Shown: one piece after another, positions 19,541 through 64,000 of the stretch
How the letters are laid out: each line of letters begins with the position of its first letter
Position numbering within the stretch: position 1 is the first letter of the stretch
IMG/VR virus record: IMGVR_UViG_3300028805_000044
Strand: one strand, 5' to 3'
DNA: 64,000 bases
Source of the DNA: a virus
Lineage: Duplodnaviria > Heunggongvirae > Uroviricota > Caudoviricetes
Notes under the pieces: model-generated
What the model was told of the DNA's origin: nothing
The model's input: only the letters and a program-made list of their open reading frames with translations
Databases searched by the model: none
Program-made: the position numbers and the translations under genes

Positions 19541-19554
19541 AGAAGAGTTAGGAA

Positions 19555-35729: not shown

Positions 35730-35730
35730 T

Positions 35731-38248: not shown

Positions 38249-38251
38249 AAT

Positions 38252-40486: not shown

Positions 40487-40591
40487 TGAAGATGAGAAAT
40501 TGTTTTGGATGTGGATACCATAAAATGGAAAAGGACTCTAAAGGAGTACCATATCACTATTGTTCTGATAGGGATTGTAGAGTAGATCCAC

Positions 40592-43214: not shown

Positions 43215-43286
43215 TTATGAATATAATAGTTTTATGTATAATTGGCTTCTTTATAGGAGCCATTTTAGGTTCTAATTCTTAAAATT

Positions 43287-43880: not shown

Positions 43881-44448
43881 TATGTGGGTAACAACTGATA
43901 CTTACGGTGATAAACTTATCTGGGAGAAGAAGCCTGAAAGAGCTAAGAATGGAAAAGAATGGATAAATGGTGGTGCAGTCGGTAGGTTGGGAGAATTCCC
44001 ACTTACCGATATCCCATCTTTTATTCAAGCTCAAGAATGGAAAGACGTTCCTATTCAAGTTAAATTTGAAATTAAGAAGAAATGACAGTACAGATTATTG
44101 TTAGTAAAGATTTAGATTTTGATCAAGAAGAACTTGCTCGATATCTAAATAATGGAATTTTAGATTATGCTACCAGAGATAATTGGATTATAGATAATAT
44201 TAGTTTTATAAAATGAATATTTTATTAGCAATATTAGGTATATGGTGTGTATTAGGCCTTATAGTCTTTGCTTGGAGTATTTATAAAGCACCTCTAGTGA
44301 AAATGAAAACTTATTATTTTAGACTTTTTCAATGTGGTGATGAAGATGGAGATACTATCTTCGTAACAGCAGCATCTTGGCCACAAGCTGAAGAAATGGT
44401 ATACCAAGATTATCACTCTATTGATAGACTTGATCGTTTATATTGTAA

Positions 44449-45423
44449 ATGAAATTTATTGAACCTTCTGTAGAAATCATCCAGCAAGAACCTGGAATTG
44501 ACGGAATGATGAAGATGATAGAAATGGCTGGACGTACAGCATATAAATCAGAAGATCATATAACAGAAGATTCAGCAAAGAAATTTGTAAAGATGCTTAA
44601 GAATAGAAATCATGGTGCTGCATTAGAGCATGGTACTTGCTATCTTGCTATTCCACGTGAAGTTTGGAATGAAATTGTAGATAATCATGATTTTAACTTT
44701 ATGGATTGTCCATATCAATGGTATGGCTTCGATTATAGAGGAGGAATTGATGGACAAGACCATATTTATCTTACTACCAACTATAGAGTTCTTGTAGAAC
44801 ATAGATATGAACAACTCCTAGATTACATGGTAACTCCTACTGAAGATGAGTTCCAAAGTAATGACTCTTATCAACATTTTCATCGTCGTATTACTGTAAA
44901 GTTTATTTGCGACAGGGGAGTAAGCCACGAATTCTGCCGTCATCGCGTTTTCAGTTTCCTTATGGAATCGACACGCTATTGTAATTATGGTAAGGACAAG
45001 TTTGGTAATCAAATTACCTTTATAATTCCAAGATGGATTCATGATATTCAAGAGAATATAGCATCAACAATTGAACCTACTACTGGTTTTACAAGGGAAT
45101 ATTTTAGAGACTATGAAACTAATGTTCTAATGGTTAATCTTACTACTGTAGATAGAACAGTTTCTCAATATGTAGATACTCTACAGATTATTGAAGACTG
45201 CTATCTAGATATGTTGACACTTGATGATGGAACTAAACTAATTCCTCAGCAAGCTAGACAAATACTTCCAAATGCTCTTAAGACTGAACTAGTAATGACT
45301 GGTACAATAGAGCAGTGGAAACACTTCTTTGATCTTAGATGTGCTGTTTCTGCACATCCCGATGCAAGATATCTTGCTGTACAATTAAAAGAACAATTCC
45401 TTAATAAGGGTTATCTAAAATAA
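44449..45423 (+). CDS. thyX: flavin-dependent thymidylate synthase
   Basis: ThyX signature RHRVFSFLMES (RHR-x7-S). Confidence 0.85.
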   Translation: MKFIEPSVEIIQQEPGIDGMMKMIEMAGRTAYKSEDHITEDSAKKFVKMLKNRNHGAALEHGTCYLAIPREVWNEIVDNHDFNFMDCPYQWYGFDYRGGIDGQDHIYLTTNYRVLVEHRYEQLLDYMVTPTEDEFQSNDSYQHFHRRITVKFICDRGVSHEFCRHRVFSFLMESTRYCNYGKDKFGNQITFIIPRWIHDIQENIASTIEPTTGFTREYFRDYETNVLMVNLTTVDRTVSQYVDTLQIIEDCYLDMLTLDDGTKLIPQQARQILPNALKTELVMTGTIEQWKHFFDLRCAVSAHPDARYLAVQLKEQFLNKGYLK

Positions 45424-45429
45424 TTATTT

Positions 45430-45666
45430 ATGTTCAAATTTATTCTTAAACTGATTTTTGGCGATTATAATCGTCGTATTGCTAGGTCTATGTCTGCCTT
45501 TACTAAGATTATCGAGAAGTGTCAGAAACTCAATGAGGAAATGCACTCCGATATTCAAAAGAAAAATGAGAAGATTAATGATCTTAATTCACAAATTGGA
45601 GATATAGAGAAAAGTATCTCCAGAAACGAGAAGTTCATTTCTAATGTTCAGAAACTTACGGAGTAA
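45430..45666 (+). CDS. small coiled-coil protein
   Basis: 78-aa ORF. Confidence 0.35.
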   Translation: MFKFILKLIFGDYNRRIARSMSAFTKIIEKCQKLNEEMHSDIQKKNEKINDLNSQIGDIEKSISRNEKFISNVQKLTE

Positions 45667-45948
45667 AACTAAAAAAGCCCTGACGAAAGTTGGGGCTTTA
45701 CTCGAAGCATTTGCAGAAGCTGTAGGAGACTTAGTTGATGATAATTTGGACTTCGATTAAAAGATGGTGGAAGAATCACCGCTGGGTAGATGTAAGAAAT
45801 AATTACATTATTCCTCATAAGAATACAACATTCTGGCTTACCGATTATTCAGTCGAAGAAGAAAGAAAATTTAAGAAAGAACATGCATCTAGATTTTATC
45901 AATATTGTTTCACTCCAGGTCCAATAGGTACCTGTATAAAAATTAAAG

Positions 45949-46287
45949 GTGGGGATGCCGAACAGGACATTACCGATTACGGATCTTGGTAAGAAATGGC
46001 TAGAATACTTTAAAAGTATTGATTGTAAGTATGTAGTCATTAACCTTAAAGATATGGTAGCTGCTCTCACTGAAGAAGAACTTAATGATTTCAATTGGTT
46101 CTTAATGAAGTATAATGATTGGAGAGCAGAAGTAAAATGTAAAGATACAGAAACTCTTGATAGGTATTTCTGTGTAAAGAGAGATGATTTTCCAGTATTT
46201 AAAGATAATGCATTAGGTTTTTGGAAGTGGGTACACGAAGTTTATAATTACGTTTATGGAAACAATGACAAAACAACAGAAGCTTGA
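45949..46287 (+). CDS. hypothetical protein
   Basis: 112-aa ORF. Confidence 0.35.
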   Translation: MGMPNRTLPITDLGKKWLEYFKSIDCKYVVINLKDMVAALTEEELNDFNWFLMKYNDWRAEVKCKDTETLDRYFCVKRDDFPVFKDNALGFWKWVHEVYNYVYGNNDKTTEA

Positions 46288-46498
46288 AGGATTCAAGGGA
46301 ATACTAGAAAACGAAGATTTTAGAAGAATGTGGATGAAAATGCATACTCCTTGGGTACGTAGACATAAAAAAATTGGTCGTAATGAAATATGTCCATTCT
46401 GTGATTCTGGTTTAAAGTATAAACAGTGTGAATGTTATGAAAAACGTTTCAATGGAAAGTATGTATTAGATGAAAAGCATACAAAAGGATGGAAATAA
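46256..46498 (+). CDS. small SEC-C-like zinc-binding protein
   Basis: CPFCDSGLKYKQCEC. Confidence 0.4.
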   Translation: METMTKQQKLEGFKGILENEDFRRMWMKMHTPWVRRHKKIGRNEICPFCDSGLKYKQCECYEKRFNGKYVLDEKHTKGWK

Positions 46499-47094
46499 TT
46501 ACTAAATATGATGTAAATACTCCTATATTCTTCACATCAGATACTCATTTTTGTCATGCTAATATAATTAAGTTTTGTGGACGTCCATTTAAGGATACAG
46601 CTGAAATGAATAATGCTTTAATAGAGAACTGGAATAAAGTAGTAGGTCCAACTGATATAATATATCACCTCGGAGACTTTTGTTTTGCCGGTTCTGTAGA
46701 TTGGCATTCTATTCTTGGACAATTAAATGGAAGAATTCATCTTATATTAGGTAATCATGATGAAAAAAACTTAAGACAAGGATATATGAACTTATTTGAA
46801 AGTGTTAGTTATCAACAACATATAGTTATTGGCCCTGATAATTTTTATTTAAATCATTATCCTTACTTATGTTATCCTGGACATCATTCACATACTTATC
46901 AGTTATTTGGACATATACATAGCAGTCCTTATATATTTGATGGTACTGACGCAGGAAAAGCAAAGAAAATGCTTACTCCAACTCAGTATGATGTAGGAGT
47001 AGATTGGAATAATTTCACTCCAATCAGCTATGATTGTGTAATAAAGAAGTTGCAGAAACAGGTTTATGAAAATAAAAATATGTTTGAGATATAA
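46489..47094 (+). CDS. calcineurin-like metallophosphoesterase
   Basis: Motifs SDTHF, GDF, GNHD. Confidence 0.6.
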   Translation: MEIITKYDVNTPIFFTSDTHFCHANIIKFCGRPFKDTAEMNNALIENWNKVVGPTDIIYHLGDFCFAGSVDWHSILGQLNGRIHLILGNHDEKNLRQGYMNLFESVSYQQHIVIGPDNFYLNHYPYLCYPGHHSHTYQLFGHIHSSPYIFDGTDAGKAKKMLTPTQYDVGVDWNNFTPISYDCVIKKLQKQVYENKNMFEI

Positions 47095-47349
47095 AAATAT
47101 TATGTATTTTGGCAGCAATTCTTATAGTTTCCTCCACAATAGTAAAGTCTGTTATTGAAGAAGATTATGAATATGCTTTACAATTTATCTTAGGAGTAGG
47201 ATTTACTTTATTAATATGGATAACAATATAAACGAAGACTTTAAAAAAGGTTATATGAGAGCTCTTAGAGATGTATTCTCGGTATTAATTGAGAATATGG
47301 ACGATGAAGTTAGAGAAGAATTATTTAAAGAACTTAAAATTCAAAAAGT

Positions 47350-47925
47350 ATGAATAGAACTTTAATTATTGTTGATGGTCAGTATGACTTTATTGAAGGT
47401 GGTAAATTAGCAGTACAAGGAGGTAAACAAGCTCTAGATAATATAGTAGAATACCTGAACTCTGGAGAAATTTCTATGGTAATTACTACTCAAGACTGGC
47501 ATAATGGTAAGCATTGTTCTTTTAAAGAGCAAGGTGGAGATTTCCCAGAGCATTGTGTAGAAGGAACCTATGGAGCAGATCTATATGCACCAATCGTAGA
47601 AGCCATCAAGAAAAATAATATACTTTGGTTCAATCTTAAGAAAGGACAGTATATAGAAGAATTTACTGCTTTTACTCATAAGACGGAGGAGTATGCTCAT
47701 TGGAAAGAATTCGGAACTACTGATGATCATAATCCTTACTTTCAGTTTCACGAAGATGAGATTATTGAAATCTGTGGTTTAGCAGGAGATATTTGTGTAA
47801 TGAATACAGCAATAGCTCTAAAAGAGTTAAAGCCTGTAATCATTTATAATCTTACTGCATCTTTAGATGATGGTAATTTCAGAGCCCTTGCCAGTCAGCA
47901 CGGTATTACTTTGGTGGAGGTATGA
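47350..47925 (+). CDS. pncA: nicotinamidase (isochorismatase family)
   Basis: LIIVDGQYDF, metal site QDWH...H, catalytic Cys CGLAGDICV. Confidence 0.75.
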   Translation: MNRTLIIVDGQYDFIEGGKLAVQGGKQALDNIVEYLNSGEISMVITTQDWHNGKHCSFKEQGGDFPEHCVEGTYGADLYAPIVEAIKKNNILWFNLKKGQYIEEFTAFTHKTEEYAHWKEFGTTDDHNPYFQFHEDEIIEICGLAGDICVMNTAIALKELKPVIIYNLTASLDDGNFRALASQHGITLVEV

Positions 47926-48719
47926 TAAAGAATCCAGTTTTAGGAGCAATCGCAGGGGACATGATAGGTGTTCCCTACGAGTTCCTTCGTCATGGAGTTG
48001 TAGTATCTCCAGAATTTCCTTTATGGTCGGACAATTCCACATTTTCTGACGACTCTGTAATGACTTTAGCTGTAGCTAAATGGTTACTAGAAGACGATAG
48101 TTATTCTGTTCAGAATCTTATAGATTGTATGGTAACTCTTGGGCGTAAATATCGTAACAGGGGTTATGGTGGTAATTTTGGAGCTTGGCTAGATAGTAAA
48201 TATCCTCAACCATACAATTCTTGGGGTAACGGTTCAGCTATGAGGGTTAGTCCTTGTGCTTGTGTTTTAGATTCACTGTCTGGAACTCTTGCCCTTGCTG
48301 AAAAATCTGCATCTGTAAGTCACAATCATCTAGAGGGAATAAAAGGTGCACAATGTGTTGCTGAATATATATGGTATGCACTTAGAAAAGAACGTCCAAT
48401 AATTAGAGGATATGATTATAATCTTGATAGAACTCCGCAGCAAATTAGAGATTCTGGATATACATTTAAAGTAAGTTGTCAAGAATCTGTACCAGAAGCT
48501 ATATGTTGTTTCTTAAATAGTAATTCCTATGAACAAACTATAAGAGAAGCAGTACTTCTAAGAGGTGATACTGATACACAAGCCTGTATGGCTGGCGCTA
48601 TTGCTGCGGCATATTGGGGAATGCCTGAAGATATAGCAGAAGAAGCTAAAAGCAGGCTACCTCAAGATCTATATGTGATTTTATCTAAGTTTAGTAAAAA
48701 GTTTAATTTACCGTTATGA
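47922..48719 (+). CDS. ADP-ribosylglycohydrolase family protein
   Basis: N-terminal GAIAGDMIGVPYEF and C-terminal GDTDTQACMAGAIAAAYWG. Confidence 0.75.
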   Translation: MIKNPVLGAIAGDMIGVPYEFLRHGVVVSPEFPLWSDNSTFSDDSVMTLAVAKWLLEDDSYSVQNLIDCMVTLGRKYRNRGYGGNFGAWLDSKYPQPYNSWGNGSAMRVSPCACVLDSLSGTLALAEKSASVSHNHLEGIKGAQCVAEYIWYALRKERPIIRGYDYNLDRTPQQIRDSGYTFKVSCQESVPEAICCFLNSNSYEQTIREAVLLRGDTDTQACMAGAIAAAYWGMPEDIAEEAKSRLPQDLYVILSKFSKKFNLPL

Positions 48720-49891
48720 TTTTAAGTATTTTAGACACTGATTTATATAAGTTTACTACATCGTATGCTTATATGAAACTATACCCTAATGCAATAGGTA
48801 TGTTTGAATATGTAGACAGGAATAATACTGTTTATGATGAATCTTTCTTAACTTATCTACAAAGTCAAATTGACAAGTTAGATGAAGTTAAATTAACTGA
48901 GCAAGAGTTTATTCAAATATTGTCTAATAAATGGTTAATGCGTTTTATTCCCTTTATATATTGGGAGTGGCTTAAAGGCTTTACATTTAAACCATTAAAG
49001 ATAAATATTTGGCTTGATACTGAAGGACATTTACATATTAGAGTAACTGATTATCTTTATAAAGTAACACTTTATGAAGTGCCTATTCTTTACACTGTTT
49101 CTGAATGTTACTATAAGTTCTTTAATATTAATGCAAATATAAATTTAATGTATAAGAACTTAAAAGAGAAGATAGATTATGCTAACGAAAATAATCTTAT
49201 ATTCTCAGAGTTTGGTACAAGAAGAAGATATTCATCAAATATACATGAGTTAGTAATTCAATATATAAAAGAATATTCTAAGACTTGTGTAGGTACTTCA
49301 AATGTTTACTTTGCTCTTAAGTATAATATGATGCCTTGTGGTACATTTCCACATGAGTGGGTTATGTTCCATGGAGCAATATGGGGATATCAACAAGCAA
49401 ACGAACTTGCAATGCGAGACTGGGTACGCTGTTATGATGGTGACCTAGGAACAGTTCTTGTTGATACTTACACTACAAAGTTCTTTATAAATCAGTTCTC
49501 TCGTAAGTATAGTAAACTGTTTGATGGTCCAAGACTAGATTCAGGAGATGAACGAGAATTAGGAGATTTATTTATTGAACATTATAAATCAATGAATATT
49601 AATCCTATGACTAAAACTCTTGTAATGAGTAATGCTCTTGATTTTCCAAAGTTTAAGACTATTAGAGATTACTTTTTAGGTAGAATAAATGTTGTAGCTG
49701 GTATAGGTACTAATCTTACAAATGACTGTGGAGTAACTCCTCTTAACGAAGTAATGAAACTTATAGAAGTACAACAACATTCCAACGCTCCAAAACTTGC
49801 TTGTATTAAACGTTCAGATGATGTGGGTAAGAGATTAGGAGATCCAGTTCAACAGCAAATACTTGATTGTGTATTAGAAAATGCCGCGTAA
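48716..49891 (+). CDS. pncB: nicotinate phosphoribosyltransferase
   Basis: LDTDLYKFT at the N-terminus, FGTRRR, and about 390 aa. Confidence 0.75.
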   Translation: MILSILDTDLYKFTTSYAYMKLYPNAIGMFEYVDRNNTVYDESFLTYLQSQIDKLDEVKLTEQEFIQILSNKWLMRFIPFIYWEWLKGFTFKPLKINIWLDTEGHLHIRVTDYLYKVTLYEVPILYTVSECYYKFFNINANINLMYKNLKEKIDYANENNLIFSEFGTRRRYSSNIHELVIQYIKEYSKTCVGTSNVYFALKYNMMPCGTFPHEWVMFHGAIWGYQQANELAMRDWVRCYDGDLGTVLVDTYTTKFFINQFSRKYSKLFDGPRLDSGDERELGDLFIEHYKSMNINPMTKTLVMSNALDFPKFKTIRDYFLGRINVVAGIGTNLTNDCGVTPLNEVMKLIEVQQHSNAPKLACIKRSDDVGKRLGDPVQQQILDCVLENAA

Positions 49892-50162
49892 AAAGACGAC
49901 TAAAACGGTGGAGACAAAGGAAAAACTTCCCTTGTTTCCACCTAAACCACGAGAAAAACTAACTTCTGGACAAGAACTTTATTGTTATTACCCTCCTGAT
50001 GATACATATCATAAAAGAGTGTATATAAAGGATGGAAAGGATCCCGATTGGGTAGTAACAAAAGATGAGAAAGGTCAGAATTGGTTAGTAAATATAGAAC
50101 ATTTACATGATACTATTTTAACAAAAGAAGAATATGAAAAATTGGGACAAATGGATAAATGA
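49881..50162 (+). CDS. hypothetical protein
   Basis: 93-aa ORF inside the NAD cluster. Confidence 0.35.
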   Translation: MPRKKTTKTVETKEKLPLFPPKPREKLTSGQELYCYYPPDDTYHKRVYIKDGKDPDWVVTKDEKGQNWLVNIEHLHDTILTKEEYEKLGQMDK

Positions 50163-50967
50163 TGCCGTAGAATCCTTAGAGGGATATATAAAGTACTATA
50201 AATTAAAAAGTGTAGTACTTGGTCTTAGTGGTGGAATAGACAGCACTGTTTCTGCAGTAATATGCCACTTAGCTACTAAAAATACACCCGGTGTTACATT
50301 TATTGGGAGAAGCCTTCCTATTAAAAATGCTGGAGATGATACCTCTATAGCAAAGAAACTTGGAGAGAAACTTTGTGATGATTTTGTAGAAGTTAACATG
50401 CTTCCATTCTATAATAACTTTAGAGAACAATTCTACAATGAAGAAGAGGAATCTAAAGCCTCTGTAATAGCAGACGGTAATATTATGGCTAGACTTCGTA
50501 TGATTTATCTTTATCAACTTGCTAATCATTATAAAGGAATAGTTATTGATACAGATAATGCTACTGAGCATGAACTGGGTTTCTATACTGTACATGGTGA
50601 CGTAGGAGATTATAATGTAGGTATTCGTTACTTATGGAAACATGAAATCTGGGAACTTGCAGAAGTTCTTAAGAATTATGCCCCAGAAGCAGCAGATATT
50701 ATACAAGAATCAATAAATCTACAGCCTACCGACGGAAACACTGGAGGTACTGATATAGACCAGATTGCTCCAAGTGCAACATACGGAGATGTAGATTTTA
50801 TTCTTAACTCTCTTACTGATAGATTTAGTTATAGAAAAGCTATTGATGTGTGTGGTCTAGAATTAGTAGAAAGAATTGATGATAGAGTAGCAGCAAATTA
50901 CTATAAACATTATCTTCCTGTTACATTAAAGACTATGCAAAATTGGTTTAATAAAGAAAATATTTAA
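50134..50967 (+). CDS. nadE: NH3-dependent NAD+ synthetase
   Basis: PP-loop LSGGIDS, about 277 aa. Confidence 0.8.
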   Translation: MKNWDKWINDAVESLEGYIKYYKLKSVVLGLSGGIDSTVSAVICHLATKNTPGVTFIGRSLPIKNAGDDTSIAKKLGEKLCDDFVEVNMLPFYNNFREQFYNEEEESKASVIADGNIMARLRMIYLYQLANHYKGIVIDTDNATEHELGFYTVHGDVGDYNVGIRYLWKHEIWELAEVLKNYAPEAADIIQESINLQPTDGNTGGTDIDQIAPSATYGDVDFILNSLTDRFSYRKAIDVCGLELVERIDDRVAANYYKHYLPVTLKTMQNWFNKENI

Positions 50968-51073
50968 TATGGATGAGATAACTCCATTATAGCGGAAAGA
51001 ATACAATAGAAGTATCTTTTAATTTAGAAGGAGAAGAAATTTCTAAAGACTTTATACATTATCGTATTAAACA

Positions 51074-51598
51074 ATGAAAGTAGCCTTTTATTTAGGGAGT
51101 TTTAATCCTCCACATTATGGACATCTTACTGTTATAAATGATGGACTTCAACAATTTGAGATGGATAAAATAATAGTGGTTCCTGCTATGCATAATCCAA
51201 CTAAACAGGAGAAGCCTGCGCCATTCGATATAAGATGTTCGTGGATGGAAAAACTTAGTGCTCAATTTCAGGGCTATGTAGAAGTGGATAGAATCGAGGA
51301 ATTAATGATTCCTCCTTTCTATTCATATGCTACATTACATGCTCTTCGAACTAAGCATTGTAATGATGAAACATACCTACTTGTTGGAGAAGATTTAGTC
51401 GACGAAATAAATGATTGGATGAATGGAGGACAAATACTAAAAGATTGGGACCTATTAGTTGTGGATAGACCACAAGGAGATTTGTCTTCAAGTTTATATA
51501 GAAAATGTCCTATTTTATTTAATTCTTTTATTCCAGAAATTATTAGAGAAGAAGTTTATTATTATTTTAGTGAACATGGAGAAAATAACACTAACTAA
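51074..51598 (+). CDS. nadD: nicotinate/nicotinamide mononucleotide adenylyltransferase
   Basis: GSFNPPHYGHL nucleotidyltransferase (H/T)xGH motif. Confidence 0.7.
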   Translation: MKVAFYLGSFNPPHYGHLTVINDGLQQFEMDKIIVVPAMHNPTKQEKPAPFDIRCSWMEKLSAQFQGYVEVDRIEELMIPPFYSYATLHALRTKHCNDETYLLVGEDLVDEINDWMNGGQILKDWDLLVVDRPQGDLSSSLYRKCPILFNSFIPEIIREEVYYYFSEHGENNTN

Positions 51599-51911
51599 TT
51601 TATGTAATTATATATATGATTGCATAAACAACAATAAAGGTATTTATAGAAATAGTTATGGAGGATTTTTTCTTATAGGTGAAATATCAGTAATGGCTTG
51701 TAATTATTCTAATTTAAAAGAGATTGTTGTTAAGCCTTATACCTATAATCATAATGTAAGAGAAAAGGATCCAATAATCATTTTAAAAATAACTGAATTC
51801 ACAGAAGAAGAATGGTTAGAGTATCAAAAAGCATTACTTGCCATACAGCGTCATAATGAAGATGTAATAATTAAAGCTATTAAGAAGAATGGAAAAGAAT
51901 TGGAGTTATAA
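51459..51911 (+). CDS. hypothetical protein
   Basis: 150-aa ORF overlapping the nadD 3' end in another frame. Confidence 0.3.
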   Translation: MWIDHKEICLQVYIENVLFYLILLFQKLLEKKFIIILVNMEKITLTNLCNYIYDCINNNKGIYRNSYGGFFLIGEISVMACNYSNLKEIVVKPYTYNHNVREKDPIIILKITEFTEEEWLEYQKALLAIQRHNEDVIIKAIKKNGKELEL

Positions 51912-52527
51912 AATTCTTGATGGACCTCACACAGGCAAGACTTTATGGAGTGGAAGATACTGTGCCGTAGCAGCATTTGTATTTAGACGTATAGAGGGCA
52001 TATGGTCAGTTCTAGCCAATCTTCGTGGTCCTGGTACACCAGACTTCCAAGGGTGTTGGAACGCAGTGTGCGGCTTCCTAGAGGCCAATGAGAGTGCTGA
52101 ACAGGGTTGTTCACGAGAAATTTTTGAGGAAACTGGGTATGAGATAAAACCAGAAAAATTTCTGCAAGTATTTACTCACACCGATCCAGAGACTTCAAAT
52201 AATGCTAACGTTACTATAAGACATCTTGCAATATTCTTTGAACACGAATTAGGTCCTAGACAAACACCTAATGGAGGAGAAGACCAGGAAGTCGACGCAG
52301 TAAGTTGGATTGCTATTGATGAAATAGATAATTATAAATGGGCATTTGATCATGAAAAGATTATAAAGGACTTATTCTATAATTATATCTACCCACTTAC
52401 AGAATATTCTCCATTATCTCCTGGTGATTACTTTATGCTTGGTAATAGAAAATGGTTACAGAAGAATCCTTTAGTGAAGAAGATACTTAAAACTAAGGTA
52501 CTTGGAACATTTGAATTATATGATTAA
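51889..52527 (+). CDS. Nudix hydrolase
   Basis: Nudix box GFLEANESAEQGCSREIFEETGY. Confidence 0.75.
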   Translation: MEKNWSYKILDGPHTGKTLWSGRYCAVAAFVFRRIEGIWSVLANLRGPGTPDFQGCWNAVCGFLEANESAEQGCSREIFEETGYEIKPEKFLQVFTHTDPETSNNANVTIRHLAIFFEHELGPRQTPNGGEDQEVDAVSWIAIDEIDNYKWAFDHEKIIKDLFYNYIYPLTEYSPLSPGDYFMLGNRKWLQKNPLVKKILKTKVLGTFELYD

Positions 52528-52957
52528 TATTGATAACTTAATAGCAGAAGCACGTAAAGAGCAAAATCCAATTAAATTAGAAGCATATAAACAAGTTAAG
52601 CAAGAATTCTTACTTAGAAAAACTAAGGGAGAAGATATTAATACAAATACTGAAGTTGCTGTACTTAAGAAACTTGTTGGGCATTATACAGATCAAGCTC
52701 AGATGTACCAAATAAATGGAAGAGAAGAAATAGCAAATGAATATACAGCATATGCTAATGAACTCAAAAAGCTTCTTCCAGAAATGATGTCTGCTTCAGA
52801 AATTGAAGAGAAAGTAAATTATATAATTGAACATAATTTTGATGGAATGCCTACTAAAAAGGACATGGGTAAAATTATCAAAATGTTCAAGGATAGTTAT
52901 TCCAATGCAGATGGTGCAGTACTAGCTAATATAGTCAAAGCAAAGATATTTGTATGA
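52502..52957 (+). CDS. YqeY/GatB C-terminal domain protein
   Basis: 151 aa with a typical YqeY helical pattern, ending DGAVLANIVKAKI. Confidence 0.5.
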   Translation: MEHLNYMINIDNLIAEARKEQNPIKLEAYKQVKQEFLLRKTKGEDINTNTEVAVLKKLVGHYTDQAQMYQINGREEIANEYTAYANELKKLLPEMMSASEIEEKVNYIIEHNFDGMPTKKDMGKIIKMFKDSYSNADGAVLANIVKAKIFV

Positions 52958-53523
52958 TTATAGGTATAGCAGGTAAAGCACAAGCAGGTAAGGATACTAC
53001 TGCTAAAATGTTAGCTTGCTTACTTTCTAATCCTAACTTAACATGGCAAATGTATTGGGAATCTGATATAGTATTTCCACAACAACATTTCGTTGTACAT
53101 TATGCTGACTTATTGAAGGAAATTTCTGGACCAATGCTTAATATGCCTTTTGAGAATTTTAATGATCAAGAGGTAAAACAACGTTATATTCCTTGGCTTG
53201 ACATGACTGTAAGAGAATTCTTACAAAGGTTAGGAACAGGAGTAAGAGTAGCAATTGATTCAGAATTTTGGGTAAAAGCACTATTTAATACTTATGATAA
53301 GAATATCATAGTAGCAGATGTGCGTTTCCCGAATGAAGCAGAAGCTATAAAAGAAAGAGGTGGAAAATTGATTAGAATAGAACGTCCTGGAGCTGGAGCA
53401 GGCAATCACATCAGTGAAACTGCTCTAGACGATTATAAAAGATGGGATATTGTAATTGACAATGTTGGTACACTTGAAGACTTATTTAATGTAGTAAAAT
53501 TTCATGTACAAAACAGTTTATAA
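52954..53523 (+). CDS. phage-type deoxynucleoside monophosphate kinase (P-loop)
   Basis: IIGIAGKAQAGKDT P-loop and DVRFPNEAEAIKERGGKLIRIERPG. Confidence 0.55.
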   Translation: MIIGIAGKAQAGKDTTAKMLACLLSNPNLTWQMYWESDIVFPQQHFVVHYADLLKEISGPMLNMPFENFNDQEVKQRYIPWLDMTVREFLQRLGTGVRVAIDSEFWVKALFNTYDKNIIVADVRFPNEAEAIKERGGKLIRIERPGAGAGNHISETALDDYKRWDIVIDNVGTLEDLFNVVKFHVQNSL

Positions 53524-53530
53524 AAAGAAT

Positions 53531-53566
53531 GGGGAGTCCGGTTATCGGGCTCCCCTCTTTTTTTTT
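53531..53566. terminator. bidirectional (convergent) hairpin terminator between early plus block and late minus block
   Basis: GGGGAGTCCG-loop-CGGGCTCCCC followed by T9 on the plus strand. The minus strand has the same hairpin followed by ATTCTTTTTAT. Confidence 0.65.
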
Positions 53567-56500
53567 ACTACTGGGCTTTCTTCCAAGCAGCATATGTATC
53601 TTTACCAGCACGTGCAACAGCAAAATTGCCCATAAATGCATCAGATACAGACTTACGACCTGTTACAACTTTAAGTCCATCTTGCATAACTTTAAGATTT
53701 ACTTCATACATTGGAGAAGCAGTATTATCTCCAAGCCAATCTTTAAAATTTAGAGGACCTCTAAATGAATCGTAAGAACGTCCTCCAGCTTTATAAAGTA
53801 TTTCGGTTGCTAAGTTAGCGATTACTGGATTATCTTTCATTACTTTCTTATAATCCTTATAAGCAGGATCGAGAGCAAATTTAAATATACTAAACAATAG
53901 AAGAGTTACAAACATGTCACTAAGTAACTTAGCGAGACTAGCTCTAACGGTTGGGTTAGCTCTTATATAATCTTTCATTGCTTGTAAACCTCCATCCTTA
54001 GTAATATAGTATATGTCTCTTAATGTGTAAGCAATACCTTGTACAATAGTTGGAACATTATGATATAGAGGCATTCCAGTATCCATTGTAGTAATTCCTC
54101 CATCTTCATCCAAGAATAATGGATTACCAGCCTCGTCAGTCTGTTGTTCAACATTAGAACGATTGGCACTATACTTACCAGGTTTCATAAAATAATTATT
54201 CCAAATACCATTCATCCAAGTAGTATACATACCAAAGAACCACATGAGTGTAGTATGTTCTCCCATAGACTTAAGAGACTTATCGTATGCACCATATATA
54301 TTATCAGCTACTTCCTTTACAGCAAGTATTTCTTTATCAGAATATGGAGCAGGTAAGAAAGTTTCTGCAGTCTCTGGATTAAGATCAATCTATTGTTCAG
54401 GATGTTCAGCATTCCATTCTCTTGCTTTAGACATATAAAGAGCTTTAGCCTATTTATATTCAGTAGAGTCCTTTGGAGTTCCATCTACTAGAGCCTTAAA
54501 TCTCTTATCCTTCTTCCAGTTGTATACAAGAATATCATCCTAAATTTCCCAACCTTCCCAACATCCATCTTTCATACAGCGTGCTACAAAAAGAGTCATT
54601 CTGTTGAGGAAATCAGGTCTACGAAGAGTAGCATATGCCCAGTTTCTATAATTGGTTATACCTCCTCTTCCTACTTTAAGAGATTCTGTACTAGCGAGGT
54701 CTATGTTAGATAGTCTGTAACGAGTTTGTAACTTACTAAGTAAACTAATATTCATAGTATTAGTCATACTGTGAGTAACTACATAAGCATAAGCCTCACT
54801 AAGAGTCTTAGCATCTATATCAGTATTTAATTTAGTTACAGTTCTCATAAAGTTTTCTTCAAATCCCTGGAATACATCACGGAAGAATGAAATCATATTA
54901 CCTCCAAGATTCATAAGAGTTACTTGACTGCGCACTCCAGCAAGAGCACCTGTAAGAACACGTCCAGTCTCACTCTTGATAGTAGTATTAAATACATTAA
55001 CTTTTAAGAAATCTCTAATATATTTTATTTCTCTTTCCATTATTTCTGAATTACCAGATTCTTCTCCCATAAGAGTAAGTTGGAAAAGAAGAGAACGTGT
55101 ACCAATCATAAAGTCTTTAAGTTTGGTGCATTCTACCTATTTAGATAGATATTCAACAAGAATATTTTCGATATTAGTTTCAAAGAAATCTACTCCTTGA
55201 GCATCTATAAATTCTTGTCTAGTTCCTGCTCTGTCCATCTCATCTCCTATATCAAACATATTATGAACATATCCAAGTTTTTCCTTGTCAGCTTCAAGAC
55301 CTTGTTTTATAAGGCTTCTTTCTTGTTCTGTAAGTTTTTCAACCTGTTCATCATAGTATTGTTCTGGATTCTTTATTACATTCCAAACTCTCCTAGCTCT
55401 ACCTTTCCAAGTACTTGCATCTAGATTCTACATAACACGTGTAGAATTAGAAGCTCTCATAAGAGGACACCATAAATATTTAAATCCACCAGCACTTTCG
55501 GCAATAAATTTAGGTATAGCTGGACTATCATAACTTCCAAAGCCGTGCACATCAGTACCTTTATTTCTAATTAAATAGAATTGATAAAGTGCCTGTTTTA
55601 AGAACTTAGCCTCTTCAGGTCTAAGACTACCATCGGTCCAAGGATTCTTAAAGCGCATAGTTTTATTGTTCTATTCATCTCTTTCAAACATATTATCAAA
55701 GAGAGATGCTTCGTTACCGAGAGTAGCATTTTGAGCAAGTCCATAACCTTTAGCCTTTAAGAATTCCATGATGAATCCTCTCATATTCTTAGCATGATAC
55801 TGTTCTACTTCAGTAGCAATACTATTGTATGTAGCAGCTAAGTTATCAGTTACTATACGAATATTCTAATTAGGGATGTGGTTTGTAGTAGACATATGTC
55901 TATATATATCAGTAAGTTCCATCTCATAGTTAAGACGTTCTCCTGTATAATGATGATAGGCATCAGATATTACTCTATAAAGTCTACATAATTTCTATTC
56001 ATTACCATGTCCCATTTGTCCGTTAGCATATCTAGCTATTTCGTCAAATTTCTTAGTTGGAAGTTTTAGATATAAACTATTAAGAAGTTCTTTAAGAATC
56101 ACCGTCTTTTTATAATCTTCATCACTTCCTACAAGATCTGCTAAAGCTTGAAATTTATCTGGAGAATATTCCATCATCTGTCCTTCTCCTTTAGCCTATG
56201 TAAGTAAAGCAAACTCATATAGTACAGCGTCAAGAGGATCGACAAATTGTTCTTTCTTAAGATTTCTAAAGTTATTAGGGAATTCTATATCAGATTCTTT
56301 AGATACAGTATCGATTATCTCTGGAAGATAATTCTTTGTAATGTCACCAATAGCATAGTTTCTTGAGTTACCATTATGACTAAGTACTTTGACTCTTCCA
56401 AGTTTTATGTTTTCCATATCCATAGTTGGAAGAACCTAGTTAAGAAGGATGATAGCACGAATTACTTCTGCATTACCATAATCGCCTCTCAATGTGTTTG

Positions 56501-58223
56501 TTTGTACATCAGTCTTAAATGCACCTAGAAGAGTATGTCTTCCTTTACCAAATGGTATTTCAGCATTACAATCAAAAGAACTAAGGGATATAATATCAAG
56601 TTGTCCTGTTTCCTTGTTCTCCATTAAAATGACATTGTAATCAAGAAGTTCATCGCGTAACTTCCATCTATAAGTCATAGAGCGTTTTCCTGTTCTAGGA
56701 TCTGCAGGTCCCCATTCTATATCATTAAAATAAACATCAAGCATAGTTTTAATAAATCCTCTAGAACTAGATAATCCTTTTAGCTTATCTATAATATCAG
56801 ACTCTGGAACATACACTCCATGTTCTGTTACTTGATTCATTTTACGTATAGCTTCTTTAAGAGTATGTACTGTCTATAAAGTATCATCCTCTATTTCATT
56901 AAGATTATCAACTACTATATCAAGGATATCCTAATTTATATTTTTATTTTTATTAGATTTAGGTCTGTAAGATTTTCCTCCTATAATAACCTCCCATCTA
57001 CCTTTTTCATCATTTACCTCTCTAATAACAAGAGGTTCTGCTTCACCAGCTTCTGGTGCATGTTTAATAAGTTCAATAGCAGAACGGTGAATTCCTTCAC
57101 TTCTCATATTAAGAATTGGGAAGGTATTTTGAAATAATTCATCAGCTTTATCAAAGGTTTCTATAGATACTTTAGGAATTGATACATTACTTGGAATAAA
57201 ATGTCTAGCATGTTTATCGTACTGTCCAAGCATATAATCACCAGTCCTATTTACAGAGATGTTTTGTGGAGCTCCTATTGTTACTTTTTCTAAGTCTCCA
57301 TCTTCGCCGTAAGTCATATGAACAGGAACTATATTAAGTTCTATGTTTTTAACTGGAATTCCATTATAAGCAAGCATCTATTTAAGGAAAGCCATACCAT
57401 AATTATATTTCTTCCACTTATCCTTAGACCAATTATTCATGGTCTATTGAGAAGCTTTAAAATTATAAATATGTAATGTTCCAGATGAATCTACTGATAA
57501 ATAGTCTACGTGACCAACAAGTTCTTTTCCAAGAGCCTCTATTTTAGCTTTAAGCCCTACGTTGCCTATAATAACTGGACCAACTTGTGTGTGATAAATA
57601 TACTGATTTACAAAGTTTTCCATTTGACTCTTTATACCTTCTAACATTGATGTCTTTCCTTCAAATGGAGTCCCATCAACTACTTCAGATACAGCTCTTA
57701 CATAATCAGAAGATTTAGTTTTTGTAGAAATAACTCCAAAACCGTCTATTATTTTGTGGAAAACTACAGAATCCTTCTTAAATTGGTCCATATTTTCAAG
57801 ATGTGTATCTACTTCTTTAGTAGCTGCTTCTTCTGTATATCCTTTATCATGTACAAGACTATCAATTTCTCTCTTTCTAAATTCTTCTTTGTTATAAGGA
57901 CGAACAAGAGGAACTCCATCTATAAGGCAAGCTGGATCCTCAATAAATTCTTGATAAGAAAGAATAGAACCGTCTCCTCCAAGTTCATCATCATATGTTG
58001 AGGCTACTCTAGAAGTAGTCATTATATAGTCATGCTTTACTTCTCCAATTCTAGTTATTATAGAATCTTTATAAGGATCTTTAGAATATACTATATCACT
58101 TATTTTAGATATAGTTTTTGTATCTAAAACTTTTGCGAACTACTCGTCTACGTACTACAATAGTTCTATAAAGGATATATCTTTCTATCCTGTGCTTAGT
58201 ACATCATAAGTACATTCTTTCAT
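53565..58223 (-). CDS. giant late protein A (about 1552 codons), TAG-recoded; virion/ejected-protein candidate
   Basis: One frame (coordinate mod 3 = 0) runs from ATG 58221-58223 to TAA 53565-53567. It is interrupted only by in-frame TAG at 17 positions (58185, 58155, 58140, 57444, 56931, 56436, 56196, 55995, 55866, 55671, 55428, 55137, 54540, 53568 and others in 54267-54539). The start overlaps the gene B stop (TAATG). Confidence 0.7.
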
Positions 58224-60736
58224 TAGTCACACTTTTCTATAATGTCTTTACCTATTTGCTCGCTTATCCAGTTAGCCTTCTATCTTTGAACTTGTATATT
58301 TTTATCTTTAAGAAAACTTATATTATCACTAACGTGTTTAGCTATGTTTGAATTGAATCTCTTCCAAATACCATCAAGAGAACCATCGAAGTCACGTATT
58401 GATTTACCTCTATCTTTTCTATCAAAGATAGTATCCACCATTGCTTTTATTTTGTCATTAGTTGCAAATAAAGAACTTAGATCATAAGGAAGGTTATCTT
58501 CCATAAATTCTCCATATAAATCAGCAACTACTTCTTCTGCTAAGTCCATTCTACTTACATTTGGAAAGTTTTTCATTTTCTTAGCTAAAGCTCTCTATCC
58601 TCTTTCAGTACTGAGAATTTTGTCTATAAGTTCTATGTAGCTCTCCCTAAGTTCTGGATCAGCTTTCATTGCTCCTAAGAACAAGTGTGCATATTCATGA
58701 AATGCATCTGAACCTTTAGCTATAGCCCTATTTATATAGATTTCTCCATTACGAATAAAGGCTCTTACAAGGTTCAAGTCTTCAATTCCCATTTCTGTAA
58801 GTTCTTCTTCTCCTACAATATTTACTGGAACTCCGAATTTTTCTTTCATTTCTACAGCTATACTATTCAATAGCTATATAACTGGAGTTCTCTTTTGAGC
58901 TCTTTTTGTAGTTACAGCAGTTTCATCTGTAGGAATATAGTGTATACGATAACGTCCTTCGTCAACTTTAAATGCTTTACTTACATAATAGAATGAAGGT
59001 TTCTTTGTATCTATGTTAGTAAGTATTTCATTTATTTTCTTTTCATTGGTTCTTGGATATGTAGTTTGTCCTTCTTCTGTAATATTGAGTTCTCTATTTA
59101 TTTCACTTATAAAAATAACAGCTTTTTCTGCTGTATTTATTTTCTGTTTTATAGATTCTTTGGTAGCAGTAGTTATATCTGTCCAAGTATCTATATAGTT
59201 ATAGAAATCTTGAAGAGTTTTGTCCAACAACAAATACTCTTCATCAAACATACTAGTAGCTCTTACATCTAAAGGTATATCTAACATAGAAAATACAGTA
59301 CCTTCAGGTATAAATCTTGGGCTAGCAAAAGTTCTACCTCCTCTTTCCTTTATATCATTACCAATAAAACTTTCTTTAAGATCAATAAAACCATCTTTTC
59401 TGAGATTTCTTGTTAAATAATGATTATCAATCCATTCTTGAGCTTCAATAAGACTAGCAAATCTTATAGCTTGTAAATTTTCATTTATAAAGTAAGGAGT
59501 AACAAAATAATAAGTTTGAGTTTTATCTCCAACTTCTTTTGTTTGACTATAAATATGGTATCCATTTCTAGTTTCTTCCTTTGTAAATGAGGCTACAGTA
59601 TCGTAAGAAAATCCATATAAAGAATGTAAAGTTGGGAATTTATTTTCTAATATAAGACTCTTGCTATTCATACTTACGGGTTTTAGAGATAAAGGATTTT
59701 CATTAGGTTCTAAGAAAGTATTAATAGCATTAAATAGAGTAGTCATTCCCCATTGATCGGAATCATCATCGACATGTCTTGCAAGATAGGCATCTCTTTC
59801 TCTTGTTAGAGCTTCTAAGAATTTCTTTTCTTCGTCATTAAGTCCAGTAATAGCAGATATATGTTCTATTACTTGACCAGCTTTCTTAGAAAATAATTCC
59901 TTAAGAACTTTCTAAGCTGTAAATATATGCGGATAGCGAACTTGTAATTGTTTAGCAAACTCACTCAAATCAAGAGTAAAATCTCCATTTGTACGTCCCT
60001 TTAGACGTTGATTAAACTCATTGAGTATAGGATTTTTATATTGTTTCTTAGATGGAACATCCCTAATAATATTTCCAACTAAATTAAGTATTACATAGGC
60101 AGATCTTCCATTTACTACAGTTTTAGAACTTCTTATTTTACTTTTATCATTTAAAAATGATAACATTAATTCTTCAGGACTCATTTTTTCTTTATCAGCA
60201 ATCTCTTGTAAGTCCTTAGCAAGATCTTCTTCTAATCCTTTTAACCATTCTCCATTTAATACTTTATCTCTAATCTTTAAGTAAGAAGCAAGTTGTACGA
60301 GAGAATCTTTGTCTCCTCTCACTACAAATATTTCTCTTCCACTTTTATCTAGAACTCTTCCGGATACCGGAAATTTAGAATTAAGATCGAGATTATCAAG
60401 TAATAATATAGGAACATTTGTATCTGGAAATTCAATTTCTGGATAAGTGTCCTATATATATTTAGCATTTACATTTGGAACAAGTCCTTCCTTTCCACTA
60501 ATCTTTGAATATGTAACAGCATAAGAAACAGCACTATTATCTTTTAAGTTCTACATAATATCGGACTTAATGCTATTCCATTGATTTTTATGTTTGGCTA
60601 TTATTGCTGCTAATCTTTGTTGGAAGACATCTGCGGGGAGGGAATGTTCTCCCTCCTATCCGTAGATTTCTTCTTCAGGGACTGTAATCCTATGTTCATA
60701 GTCCCCGAACTTAAAAGTTATAGTACAATTCTTCAT
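58223..60736 (-). CDS. large late protein B (about 837 codons), TAG-recoded, contains HExxH zincin motif
   Basis: One frame (mod 3 = 2) runs from ATG 60734-60736 to TAA 58223-58225, with in-frame TAG at 60656, 60551, 60452, 59912, 58874, 58595, 58280. FHEYAHLF lies in the 58595-58870 segment. Start ATG overlaps the gene C stop (ATGA). Confidence 0.65.
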
Positions 60737-63700
60737 GCACAAATTACGTCTAATAATAATTTACTTGATCTCATTAGATTAGCTATTGCTTCTATAGGAG
60801 AATCATCTAATAAGTTCTACGTCTTAACTAGGATGTCTGAATAAGGTTTACCAAGTACAAAGTAAGCACGTTGTAGATAGAATCTATGAAGCATTTGTTC
60901 AACACTTTCTCCAGTTACTGGTGGAAGTATATCATCCATAGGCTTATAGTTAAATCCATCACGTTTATAATACTTAGGTACTTTATCCTCATACATTATA
61001 ACTACTGGATCTGTTTGTCCCTCAAGACTGGTTACTATTCTAGCTTGAGAAATAAATAAGTCCATAGCAGTAAAGTTCATCATATCGTCAATACTGCCAT
61101 TCTTGTAGTCATATTCTCCTACATATTTCAAATATCTATTTATTAAGTTATCGCCTTTACTATCAAATTCCTTTACGAAATTCTCAAATATCTTTGTTAG
61201 ACGATCAGAACCATACTAGTTCTTATTAACTATCAAATTATATAGAGCGAACCAATCAGCTAAAGAATATTCTCCAATCTTAAAGTTTTGTAATTGGTTA
61301 AGTCCTTTACTAAACTTAGATAATTGTATTCTTGTATATGCTGAATCCGAAGAGATATTAACATTGGTCTTCCAAACAGGAACATCTCTATCATTACCTC
61401 TCATAAGAGACATAATAAATGGGTTGTAACGGATAGTTTCTTTGTCTTGGTCAGACCACTCTCCATAAGTTCCTGCCTTTAATCCAGGAATAACTACATT
61501 TTCAAAGTAATATTTAAATGAAGCAATTCCTTCTTCAGTACTTAAATTAATAAGTCCATCTTTAACTATTGAAATAGTTCTATTACTGTTAATAACAGAA
61601 CCGCTAACAGGGAATCTAAAATTACCATCTACAACAAATTGCTGCATCATTAGATTAGAAGCAAATCCTAGTATTCTAGAATAATACTTGTCATCTATAT
61701 ACATTGTAGGACATTCTTTATTTATTTTTTCAAGACAAGCATTTAATATACGGCTCTTAACAGCAAATTGGTTTACTGTACATTCACCTCCAAGTAATTT
61801 GAACATACTCTTAAAGTGTGGTAATGTAGTAGCTATAGCAAATATATTAAGGCTCACCTTTATCTAGTTGTAATATTCAGCAACTCTCCTTTGATATTCT
61901 TCATCCTATAACCATCTAACTGGATCAAATCTTCCTCCCATTATATCAGCATAACGTTCAGGATTCTTTATTTCATTATCAGGTATAAGATTACCTTTAT
62001 TATCTAAGACTCCTACTTCTTTTTCTCTTCCAGTAATAATCTTCTTAATGTTACTTAGATAACCTACCAAGTCCTCTGCCTTACCTGGAAGACCTTGGTT
62101 AATACTAAGAAGACGTCCGAAGGTACTGAACTCATCAGCTCCAGCTTGTACAGTCTTAAATTCAGCTATATCAGCAAGTGCTTCTTGTACTTGTACAGCA
62201 GTCAAATTAGATGGAACTATACTTTTTATAAGTGCTAATTTCTTTCTAGAACCTGGAACTTCTCCATTTTCATCTTCGAAATGGTCAGCATCCTTATTAA
62301 TTGCATAATTCTTCAAGTAATTTTCTATCTCCGTTATAGCTTCATCGACTCTTAAATCTTGTCCTAAGAATATATTAGGATCAGAAAGAGCATCTATCCA
62401 AGAAACTGCATTACTAGTCATAAACTTAACTATATCGTTAATATCATATCCCATAGTCATTAGGAATAGATAGCACTTAGCTAACTTACTACCAGCATTA
62501 ATCTTAGCAAGAATAAGTTCTTTAGCATTATCAGTAGCTGCAGAAATCATCTGGCTAATAATAATATCAACGGGAATCTTAGATTTTAACTTTCCATTCT
62601 ATATAAGTTGTACAAGGTTAGGATCTACTATACCTTCTGTATTTATATCAGGGAGTATTGAAGTAGATACTTGTCTCATCATTGGTTTACCATTAGTATC
62701 TTTAATACTTCTACCAGCAATACGGCTTGTAGAGAAATTAAATCTTGCATAATCCAAATCAGAGAAAGGAGTAGGAATTACTTCTCCATTTTCAACTCTG
62801 TAATCAAGTCCTAATTTAGCATTTTTATATGTATCATTCAAGTAGAACATCCACATAAATGCTCCTTTCTGACCTGTAGCTGAAATAGCAATAACATTCT
62901 TACCAGTCATATTCTAATACTGCATAGTATATACAGAAAGTGGATTCATAAGAGTTATTTCCAATGATTCAGCTCCTTTAGGAGAGTCATCTGCTGCATC
63001 TCTAAGGTCGTTCATATCTACAGGAACGTAAGAATCAGCAGCATTTCTAACATGCTATATAGTATTTTGAATATGCACAGAAATAAAGTTTCTAAGAGCT
63101 TGTGCTTTTATTTCTGCAGGAAGTTTAGTTGCATTATGTTGGTTAAGAGTCTTTATTATTTCTTCTGAAGCTCCTTTAACTTTAGTACCATCTTCTAATT
63201 TATTAAAAATACTAACATATGCGAGTATTCTATTTGTCTTATATTGACTTATTAATTTAGAATCTGAAATACCCTATTTAAGTGCAGCATCAGCCTCTGT
63301 GATTATTTTAGCTTCTTCAGAAACATCAATTCCATCTTGTGCTTCCTCTATAACTACTCCATTCTTTGGAAGAGGTAAATATTCAGAAGCCTTTATAGTT
63401 TCTAGATCATTATAGTCAAAGAGACTAGACCAACCTATATATTGTCCATTATCATCAAATGCAAGTCCCATTATATAAGCCTTATCAATATCATAGTCAG
63501 AACCTTGAAGCCAGGTCTACCAATGGCTTACATAGGCTAAGTTACTTCCTTCAGCAGTATAAGCAACCTGTCTCATATTCATAAATGACTATAATGTCTA
63601 AGCAGGAATACGAGAAGCTGTATAATACTGAGACCTTAAGAATGAATAATATTTCTTATAGTTTAGACCATTCTTAGCAGCTACAGTTCTGTCATCTATT

Positions 63701-64000
63701 ATTTTAGCAATAGATCCAGGCTCTTTAGCCTTTATAAAGAATATAGCTCCAGATTCAGCATCATACTATAAGTCAGGACGTATAAAATTCTTAGTATTAG
63801 GTATTTTACTAACTTGTTCAGATATTGATTCTAAATACTTAGAAAGCTATGGATTATAACTAAATCCTTCTTCATCAGCTTTTGCATATTTTTCAAGTAT
63901 TCTCTGAACTTTACCTAGATTAGAAAGTCTTAACTGTTGATTATTTATTGTTAATAATTCATAAGAATCAGCTTCATACATTTCCTTTATAAGTCCCTAT
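60733..64000 (-). CDS. giant late protein C (more than 1089 codons, 5' end beyond window), TAG-recoded
   Basis: One frame (mod 3 = 1) ends at TGA 60733-60735. In-frame TAG at 60817, 61216, 61906, 62599, 62914, 63055, 63274 and upstream. No TAA/TGA in the translated stretches. Confidence 0.65.

Follow-up and report, generated by a model that had tools for sequence, protein, structure and literature searches.

Reassignment of the TAG stop codon to glutamine in late genes has been described for Beta-, Delta-, and Zeta-group crAss-like phages, as have suppressor tRNAs (Yutin et al. 2021, PMC7886860). In that study, Zeta genomes measured 145-192 kb and were exceptionally dense in group I introns and inteins, with LAGLIDADG-bearing introns in the block of transcription genes that carries the DxDxD motif. 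An analysis of 43 Zeta genomes of 156-189 kb reported 4-34 tRNAs, either polA or polB, amber or opal suppression, and a two-block layout whose forward block includes homing endonucleases and genes of tRNA metabolism, and proposed the family Echekviridae (Babkin et al. 2025, PMC12386605). Recoding has been proposed to gate late and lytic genes (Borges et al., 10.1101/2021.08.26.457843), and peptide evidence for code 15 has been obtained in crAss-like phages (Peters et al. 2022, PMC9523058). Here we examined 64 kb (G+C, 32.6%) of IMG/VR record IMGVR_UViG_3300028805_000044, a stretch referred to as the window, in which a minus-strand block of late genes at 53565-64000 is written with TAG as a sense codon. 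The pattern fully matches that of the published crAss-like phages, in which the phenomenon is already well documented. We consider it highly likely that the window derives from a large crAss-like gut or rumen phage with an early block in the standard code, late genes in which TAG stands for glutamine, and, probably, a suppressor tRNA in an array to the left of the window.

Under the standard code, the open reading frame (ORF) list for the minus strand at 53565-64000 contained only 17 fragments of 60 to 290 amino acids. These fell into three frame runs of 8 (53568 to 57444), 4 (58280 to 59912), and 5 (60817 to 63274) fragments, an exact match to the description in the initial annotation. Every stop codon was mapped in the three minus-strand frames, and a stop-to-stop scan was performed with TAG as a sense codon. 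The 17 fragments merged into three long frames, which hold genes A, B, and C:

Frame A, 53565-58226, minus strand: 18 in-frame TAG codons, ending in TAA at 53567-53565; holds gene A (53565..58223; 1,552 codons plus TAA), a large protein with no assigned function
Frame B, 58223-60760, minus strand: 7 in-frame TAG codons, ending in TAA at 58225-58223; holds gene B (58223..60736; 837 codons plus TAA)
Frame C, 60733-63999, minus strand: 14 in-frame TAG codons, ending in TGA at 60735-60733 and open at the window edge; holds the 3' part of gene C (60733..64000; C-terminal 1,088 codons, frame to 63999)

Together, the merged frames comprised 3,477 codons with 39 in-frame TAG codons (1.1% of codons), whereas TAA and TGA were absent. 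On this strand, the two remaining frames contained 152 and 228 TAA plus TGA codons (∼5.5% of codons), and hence the absence of these codons from the merged frames is not due to chance (∼10^-85 by arithmetic from the other-frame counts). The initial annotation had read 28 of 28 fragment boundaries as TAG and had placed the first in-frame TAA or TGA at the three gene ends (TAA 53565, TAA 58223, and TGA 60733); the full count of 39 TAG among 39 in-frame stops extended the first of these readings, and the stop map agreed with the second. Retranslation with TAG as glutamine, which it had proposed as a check, produced three long ORFs ending in TAA, TAA, and TGA, and neither an in-frame TAA or TGA nor a mixture of stop types was detected in the 3,477 codons. 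In gene A, the last TAG immediately precedes the TAA stop. The start codon of gene B (ATG at 60736) overlaps the stop of gene C as ATGA, and that of gene A (ATG at 58223) overlaps the stop of gene B as TAATG, junctions that are typical of compact operons.

Relatives in which the same genes are uninterrupted were detected in large numbers. A search with the TAG-as-glutamine translation of gene C yielded 234 homologues, many of ∼900-980 amino acids and unbroken over the last 84% of C. The gene order in the contigs of these homologues was constant: a protein of ∼2,900 amino acids with an AAA_30 helicase domain and one of ∼2,300-2,370 amino acids were followed by the counterparts of C (∼910-990 amino acids, covering most of C), B (∼810-860 amino acids), and A (∼1,530-1,550 amino acids), with converging early genes after the A counterpart. 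GenBank record MT835470.1 (locus L001), which uses the standard code, has ORFs of 2,789+, 2,282, 992, 810, and 1,530 codons with zero in-frame TAG and exhibits 24-29% identity to the window in A and C. Full-length homologues of gene A (1,530-1,552 amino acids) and, at the equivalent position, homologues of gene B (810-980 amino acids) were present in L001, L002, L003, L006, and L243. Standard-code relatives carry these genes at full length, with matching sizes and in matching order, which bore out the earlier claim that TAG is read as sense and that termination is by TAA and TGA. The minus-strand frames are intact, real genes.

A gene A homologue was encoded by 75 IMG/VR loci, of which 56 had no internal stop, 18 had in-frame TAG only (6-37 each), and 1 had two in-frame TGA codons; the gene A family therefore has both standard-code and TAG-recoded members. 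Every homologue with more than 30% identity to the gene A product of the window was TAG-recoded. The single locus with two in-frame TGA codons and no TAG (L191; IMGVR_UViG_3300045988_109388) suggests that an opal-recoded branch exists within this protein family. Megablast of the late region against GenBank phages yielded zero matches, and tblastn detected only three distant, unannotated records; the closest GenBank phage records were 24-30% identical in genes A and C. The nearest relatives of the window are metagenome assemblies, with no close match among GenBank phage records.

The amino acid specified by TAG was examined by codon alignment with L003, an independent assembly with ∼93% nucleotide identity to the window. 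Of 17 codon differences involving TAG, 16 were between TAG and CAA or CAG. The 33 aligned TAG codons of the window corresponded in L003 to 23 TAG, 6 CAA, and 4 CAG codons, and the L003 TAG codons that differed in the window were 3 CAA, 3 CAG, and 1 GAG. No exchange of TAG with TGG, TAT/TAC, or any single-step neighbour other than those listed was detected in this alignment. A substitution-profile test was also performed, in which 358 TAG-by-column observations from 17 recoded A sequences were compared with the residues of 20 standard-code homologues. Glutamine gave the best fit; glutamate and arginine were next, at 22 log-likelihood units worse, and tryptophan was outside the top 8. Both tests selected glutamine, the residue that the initial annotation had proposed by analogy with other phages. 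These results indicated that TAG stands for glutamine in the late block. TAG accounts for 39 of the 133 glutamine codons of this block, and with TAG included, glutamine makes up 3.8% of late-block codons as against 3.2% in the early block. Pyrrolysine decoding was considered and rejected: TAG is frequent and swaps with glutamine codons, and no pyrrolysine-related Pfam family was detected in 49 scanned proteins. The ARAGORN label 'Pyl' denotes the anticodon CTA and nothing more.

The block upstream of these genes is compatible with the standard code:

Early/middle gene block, 1..53523, plus strand: replication and nucleotide metabolism, standard code

Standard-code ORFs covered 95.7% of this block, in keeping with the view in the initial annotation that plus-strand genes use the standard code. 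The stops of 93 greedy plus-strand ORFs were 44 TGA, 41 TAA, and 8 TAG, and hence the further claim that TAG is almost absent as a stop on this strand was too strong. Each of the eight ORFs that end in TAG has an in-frame backup TAA or TGA 2-22 codons later:

915-2453, plus strand: standard-code ORF ending in TAG
6663-6947, plus strand: standard-code ORF ending in TAG
7590-7934, plus strand: standard-code ORF ending in TAG
8571-9047, plus strand: standard-code ORF ending in TAG
10641-10946, plus strand: standard-code ORF ending in TAG
25676-25885, plus strand: standard-code ORF ending in TAG
29889-30212, plus strand: standard-code ORF ending in TAG
33663-34046, plus strand: standard-code ORF ending in TAG

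Some of the small ORFs in this set may not be genes. If a suppressor is active, the TAG-ending early proteins would gain short C-terminal extensions.

The phage has two converging gene blocks, with replication and metabolism on the plus strand and giant virion-associated proteins on the minus strand. The plus-strand block, being in the standard code, would be readable by an unmodified host, and in the late block TAG serves as a glutamine codon while TAA and TGA keep terminating. We infer that the genome carries a tRNA(CUA) in an array that precedes the early block and lies just to the left of window position 1. This suppressor would be produced during infection and presumably charged with glutamine by the host glutaminyl-tRNA synthetase (GlnRS). 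Ribosomes could then read through TAG and, as this would occur only with the suppressor, the late proteins would be made only after it appears, which may confer timing or gating on the late block. Such an arrangement resembles the recoding gate of gut phages (Borges et al. 2021/2022; Ivanova et al. 2014; Peters et al. 2022) in having standard-code-compatible early genes and TAG-rich late genes, a host presumed to use the standard code, and, in a relative, a suppressor in the standard-code part. It differs from that system in that no release factor 2 (RF2), aminoacyl-tRNA synthetase, or 'code-change module' is present in the window. In contrast to the systems of Borges et al., the lysis genes that those authors emphasise lie outside the window, and no 5' enrichment of TAG was detected across the gene A family. 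In the first 50 codons of the gene A of the window, all three glutamine positions are TAG; a concentration of TAG in this segment as a translational gate was examined and rejected across 11 full-length recoded A homologues (Fisher p = 0.21).

Four IMG/VR contigs are collinear with the early block of the window at 72-82% nucleotide identity: 3300012016_000001 (194.5 kb; loci L036, L117, and L243), 3300033463_000772 (L015 and L040), 3300028591_000289 (L014, L107, and L116), and 3300028833_006018 (L115). The region upstream of the point at which the window starts was recovered in three of the four, all except 3300028591_000289, and in each of these (L117/L036, L040, and L115) a large tRNA array was located directly upstream of this point, with 22 tRNAs in L117 and 24 in L040. 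By synteny, the window would miss the tRNA array by a few kilobases. The L117 array contains a tRNA with anticodon CUA at 4541-4614 (ARAGORN; Rfam tRNA, 60.2 bits, E = 6e-13). On the same 194.5-kb contig, 50-70 kb beyond the array, in-frame TAG occurs 30 times in A, 10 times in B, and at least 9 times in C, and TAA and TGA are absent. This relative encodes an amber suppressor within the part of its genome that uses the standard code, and its late block depends on that suppressor. The phage suppressor tRNA put forward in the initial annotation was thus found in a syntenic, recoded relative, and for the window's own genome such a tRNA is plausible from gene order. Two of the three arrays also contain a tmRNA gene, at 8017-8376 in L117 and at 2064-2435 in L115; others were detected in the tRNA arrays of L017, L019, L022, L023, and further loci, including other phage contigs of ∼95 kb.

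Several findings weigh against this interpretation. No tRNA gene was detected in the 64-kb window by ARAGORN, and no Rfam family was detected there at the gathering threshold. The slot of the L117 tRNA(CUA) is occupied by a tRNA with anticodon CCA in L040, the closest relative with most of the array recovered (∼78% nucleotide identity), and no tRNA(CUA) was detected in the 19 kb recovered from this locus. A Pfam scan of 49 plus-strand proteins detected neither a release factor nor an aminoacyl-tRNA synthetase. The probable assignment of the phage to the Zeta group rests on the contig sizes, introns, tRNA array, and RNA polymerase of relatives. Recoding and detectable suppressors do not always occur together, and in some recoded Zeta genomes a suppressor could not be detected (Yutin et al. 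2021, PMC7886860). A metagenome scan aimed at the left flank of the window returned only short or distant contigs.

The tRNA results could also be explained if TAG were decoded without a phage suppressor, either by a host suppressor or because the phage alters release factor 1 or tRNAs of the host, the genome itself having no tRNA(CUA). In keeping with this explanation, the L117 suppressor's anticodon-arm and T-arm signature, in its exact form, was present in one IMG/VR contig only, and therefore does not mark the recoded relatives as a group. However, a tRNA(CUA) is encoded by a syntenic recoded relative in an array that, by synteny, adjoins the left edge of the window, and the 18 TAG codons in one gene require efficient suppression. 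Furthermore, no bacterial host is known to decode TAG as glutamine (Borges et al.). On balance, decoding by the host or by altered host factors is unlikely, and a suppressor encoded to the left of the window remains our preferred explanation. Two odd tRNA-like genes of L040, with anticodon loops of 6 or 9 nucleotides, were examined as hidden suppressors and rejected; neither has CUA, and one resembles tRNA-Leu(UAA).

The L117 tRNA(CUA) has an unusual G33. Among 449 tRNAs from all fetched loci, its sole clear relative was the L040 tRNA(CCA) (11683-11756), whose anticodon arm is almost the same and whose position in the collinear array corresponds to that of the suppressor. The tRNA-Gln(UUG) genes of the phages were unrelated to the suppressor. 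Beyond the L117/L040 pair, the body of the suppressor resembles canonical tRNA-Trp weakly. This comparison suggests an anticodon switch between CCA and CUA within one tRNA gene lineage, with the codon behaving as glutamine. As the lineage suppressor appears to be a variant of a tRNA whose anticodon, CCA, is that of Trp, TAG might instead be read as tryptophan or as a mixture of tryptophan and glutamine. In E. coli, the amber suppressor su+7 is a tRNA-Trp whose anticodon is CUA, and it is charged mainly with glutamine. No TAG-to-TGG exchange was detected among the codon differences with L003 or L002, and the profile test clearly favoured glutamine and did not place tryptophan among the eight best residues. 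Borges et al. (10.1101/2021.08.26.457843) cite glutaminylation of TAG suppressors. Decoding of TAG as tryptophan, wholly or in part, is therefore very improbable, and glutamine is retained as the residue specified.

The relatives of the window resemble su+7 in that one array slot carries CCA in one relative and CUA in another and that the codon behaves as glutamine. They differ from it in that the L117 suppressor has G33 and only a weak likeness to tRNA-Trp; which way the anticodon changed, and which enzyme charges the tRNA, are matters of conjecture. Tentatively, and less probably than not, the suppressor may have arisen by one CCA-to-CUA anticodon change in an unusual second copy of a tRNA-Trp-type gene of the phage array, a copy with G33, a G1-U72 wobble pair, G2:C71, G3:C70, and G73, with the host GlnRS charging it with glutamine as for su+7 and a phage YqeY protein maybe helping. 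A YqeY-like (GatB-related) protein is encoded at 52502-52957, two genes from the recoded block, and is kept in L002 (20554-20991). In Deinococcus GlnRS, a YqeY domain raises the affinity for tRNA-Gln and acts in cis only (PMC1865053). Enhancement of GlnRS by a free YqeY protein was rejected because the Deinococcus domain works in cis only, and any role of the phage YqeY in TAG-to-Gln decoding is speculation.

That the three frames are decaying pseudogenes or assembly or sequencing artefacts, as might be supposed from the 17 short standard-code fragments and from the failure of genes A and B to match any known protein family, is effectively refuted by the exclusive use of TAG at all 39 interruptions with no frameshift, the retention of many TAG positions in independent assemblies with glutamine codons at positions that differ, the widespread intact full-length homologues, and the preserved ATGA and TAATG junctions.

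Searches of Pfam, PHROGs, and PDB sequences with proteins A, B, and C detected nothing significant. An AlphaFold2 model of gene C (82 sequences) had a mean pLDDT of 80.9 and was good from residue 180 on, and in a Foldseek search of the PDB its sole significant match was 6vr4_A (E = 2e-6, probability 1.0), the virion-packaged RNA polymerase of crAss-like phage phi14:2; the next match had E = 0.58. The identification thus depended on a structure-based search, as the sequence searches had yielded nothing. On the basis of this predicted fold, gene C is the C-terminal part of a crAss-like virion RNA polymerase homologue of ∼3,290 residues. It carries the catalytic signature of such enzymes:

63484-63498, minus strand: DYDID (DxDxD) catalytic signature of gene C, read from the translation

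The full size of the orthologue was provided by the spliced L003 protein of 3,293 amino acids and by an intron-less protein of 3,293 amino acids in the same 90% cluster. The allele in the window is intron-less, and hence gene C continues upstream past 64000. The gene C fold resembles gp66 of phi14:2 (PDB 6VR4) over 969 aligned columns, with the DxDxD motif and a block of giant genes downstream of structural genes in common. The two differ in that identity is 12%, sizes are ∼3,290 and 2,166 residues, and TM-scores are low (0.31 and 0.18); the comparison covers the C-terminal part of gene C, the first beta-barrel part and the N-terminal two-thirds being outside the window. The initial annotation had expected full-length matches to crAss-like virion proteins. 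This expectation held for gene C, through the phi14:2 RNA polymerase fold, and did not hold for A and B, which had no family, PHROG, or PDB sequence match. Gene A belongs to the crAss-type 'transcription/virion' gene block. Near its C terminus, gene B has an HExxH motif (HEYAH), read from the sequence, and any function drawn from this motif would be putative.

The DYDID motif is a site of intron insertion in relatives. In L003, a 336-nucleotide group I intron (9644-9979; Rfam RF00028, 60.2 bits) lies inside the motif, and in L002 a 1,039-nucleotide insert with a LAGLIDADG ORF (8941-9979) occupies the same site; by BLAST breakpoints, the insertion point lies between window positions 63493 and 63492. 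L006 has a different insert (about 3310-4670) with another ORF, a few codons upstream of the L003/L002 site. No intron is present at DYDID in the window allele.

The late block is crAss-like, and the phage is probably a member of the Zeta group, a likeness that is drawn from published descriptions of that group. As in that group, there are two opposed blocks, and the forward block has PolA, NrdD, helicases, homing endonucleases, and, in relatives, a tRNA array. TAG is reassigned in the virion/late block only, TAA and TGA act as stops, and a tRNA(CUA) is present in the relative L117. There are LAGLIDADG-bearing group I introns, some of which, in relatives, lie in the RNA polymerase gene at DxDxD. 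Within the window itself, one group I intron is clear, and a second intervening sequence is present. The G+C content is ∼33%, matches to known phages are few, and the contigs of relatives (141.5, 163.3, 176.6, 184.3, and 194.5 kb) span 141-194 kb compared to the published 145-192 kb. The window's replication genes (primase, DnaB, SNF2, and AAA ATPase) form a set that is conserved in crAss-like phages. The TerL, portal, and MCP genes lie outside the window; in MT835470.1 their order is TerL, portal, and, further on, MCP. The TerL of MT835470.1 matches only crAss-like phages, at ∼30% identity: cr-series exemplars, Bacteroides crAss-like phages, Azobacteroides phage ProJPt-Bp1, IAS virus, and Flavobacterium phages.

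The Pfam scan of the early block covered 48 ORFs of at least 140 amino acids and the spliced AAA ATPase. Replication functions comprised SNF2/ResIII (SWI2_SNF2) and DnaB (DnaB_C) helicases, a Toprim primase (Toprim_2), an AAA_30 helicase, the AAA ATPase (AAA_22/AAA_24), an ATP-dependent ligase, and a family A DNA polymerase (PolA). Nucleotide metabolism was represented by NrdD, dUTPase, ThyX, and a polynucleotide kinase-phosphatase (PNKP), and a dNMP kinase was labelled from the Pfam tag of its L002 homologue. A NAD-related cluster at 47350-52527 encodes isochorismatase-family, ADP-ribosylglycohydrolase, NAPRTase, NAD synthase, cytidylyltransferase-like (NMNAT-type), and NUDIX hydrolase proteins. 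A complete sigma-70-type factor with regions 1.2, 2, 3, and 4 is encoded in the middle of the block (37403-38248) and coexists in one phage with an apparent virion RNA polymerase of its own.

Two plus-strand genes are interrupted. A group I intron within 15614-16700 (Rfam RF00028, 64.4 bits at 16410-16664), with a LAGLIDADG homing-endonuclease ORF at 15703-16605, splits the AAA ATPase gene directly after Walker B (LIIDD); the insert is absent from relatives, and the intron was missed by the whole-window Rfam scan at the gathering threshold. A 940-nucleotide intervening sequence at 5502-6441, which is absent from four relatives, interrupts an SPFH/Band_7 gene, and its excision produces a continuous ORF of 268 codons. 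The intervening sequence resembles a group I intron only weakly (20.1 bits, E = 0.017) and has an ORF (5912-6433) with no Pfam match. Between the converging blocks (region 53520..53566), a G+C-rich hairpin at 53531-55, bordered by an A-run and, on the opposite side, a T-run, is probably a bidirectional intrinsic terminator.

The window adds one lineage to the crAss-like phages that write their late genes in a code that the host cannot read, and the general picture of the phenomenon is unchanged. Annotation of such genomes requires translation table 15 (TAG = Gln), as three giant virion genes, including an RNA polymerase, are otherwise misannotated as 17 fragments, and must also allow for introns. 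The origin and charging of the suppressor tRNA in the relative of this phage form the only possibly new angle. If the proposed origin is true, these phages would switch code by means of a known weakness in tRNA identity and not by the capture of a tRNA-Gln.

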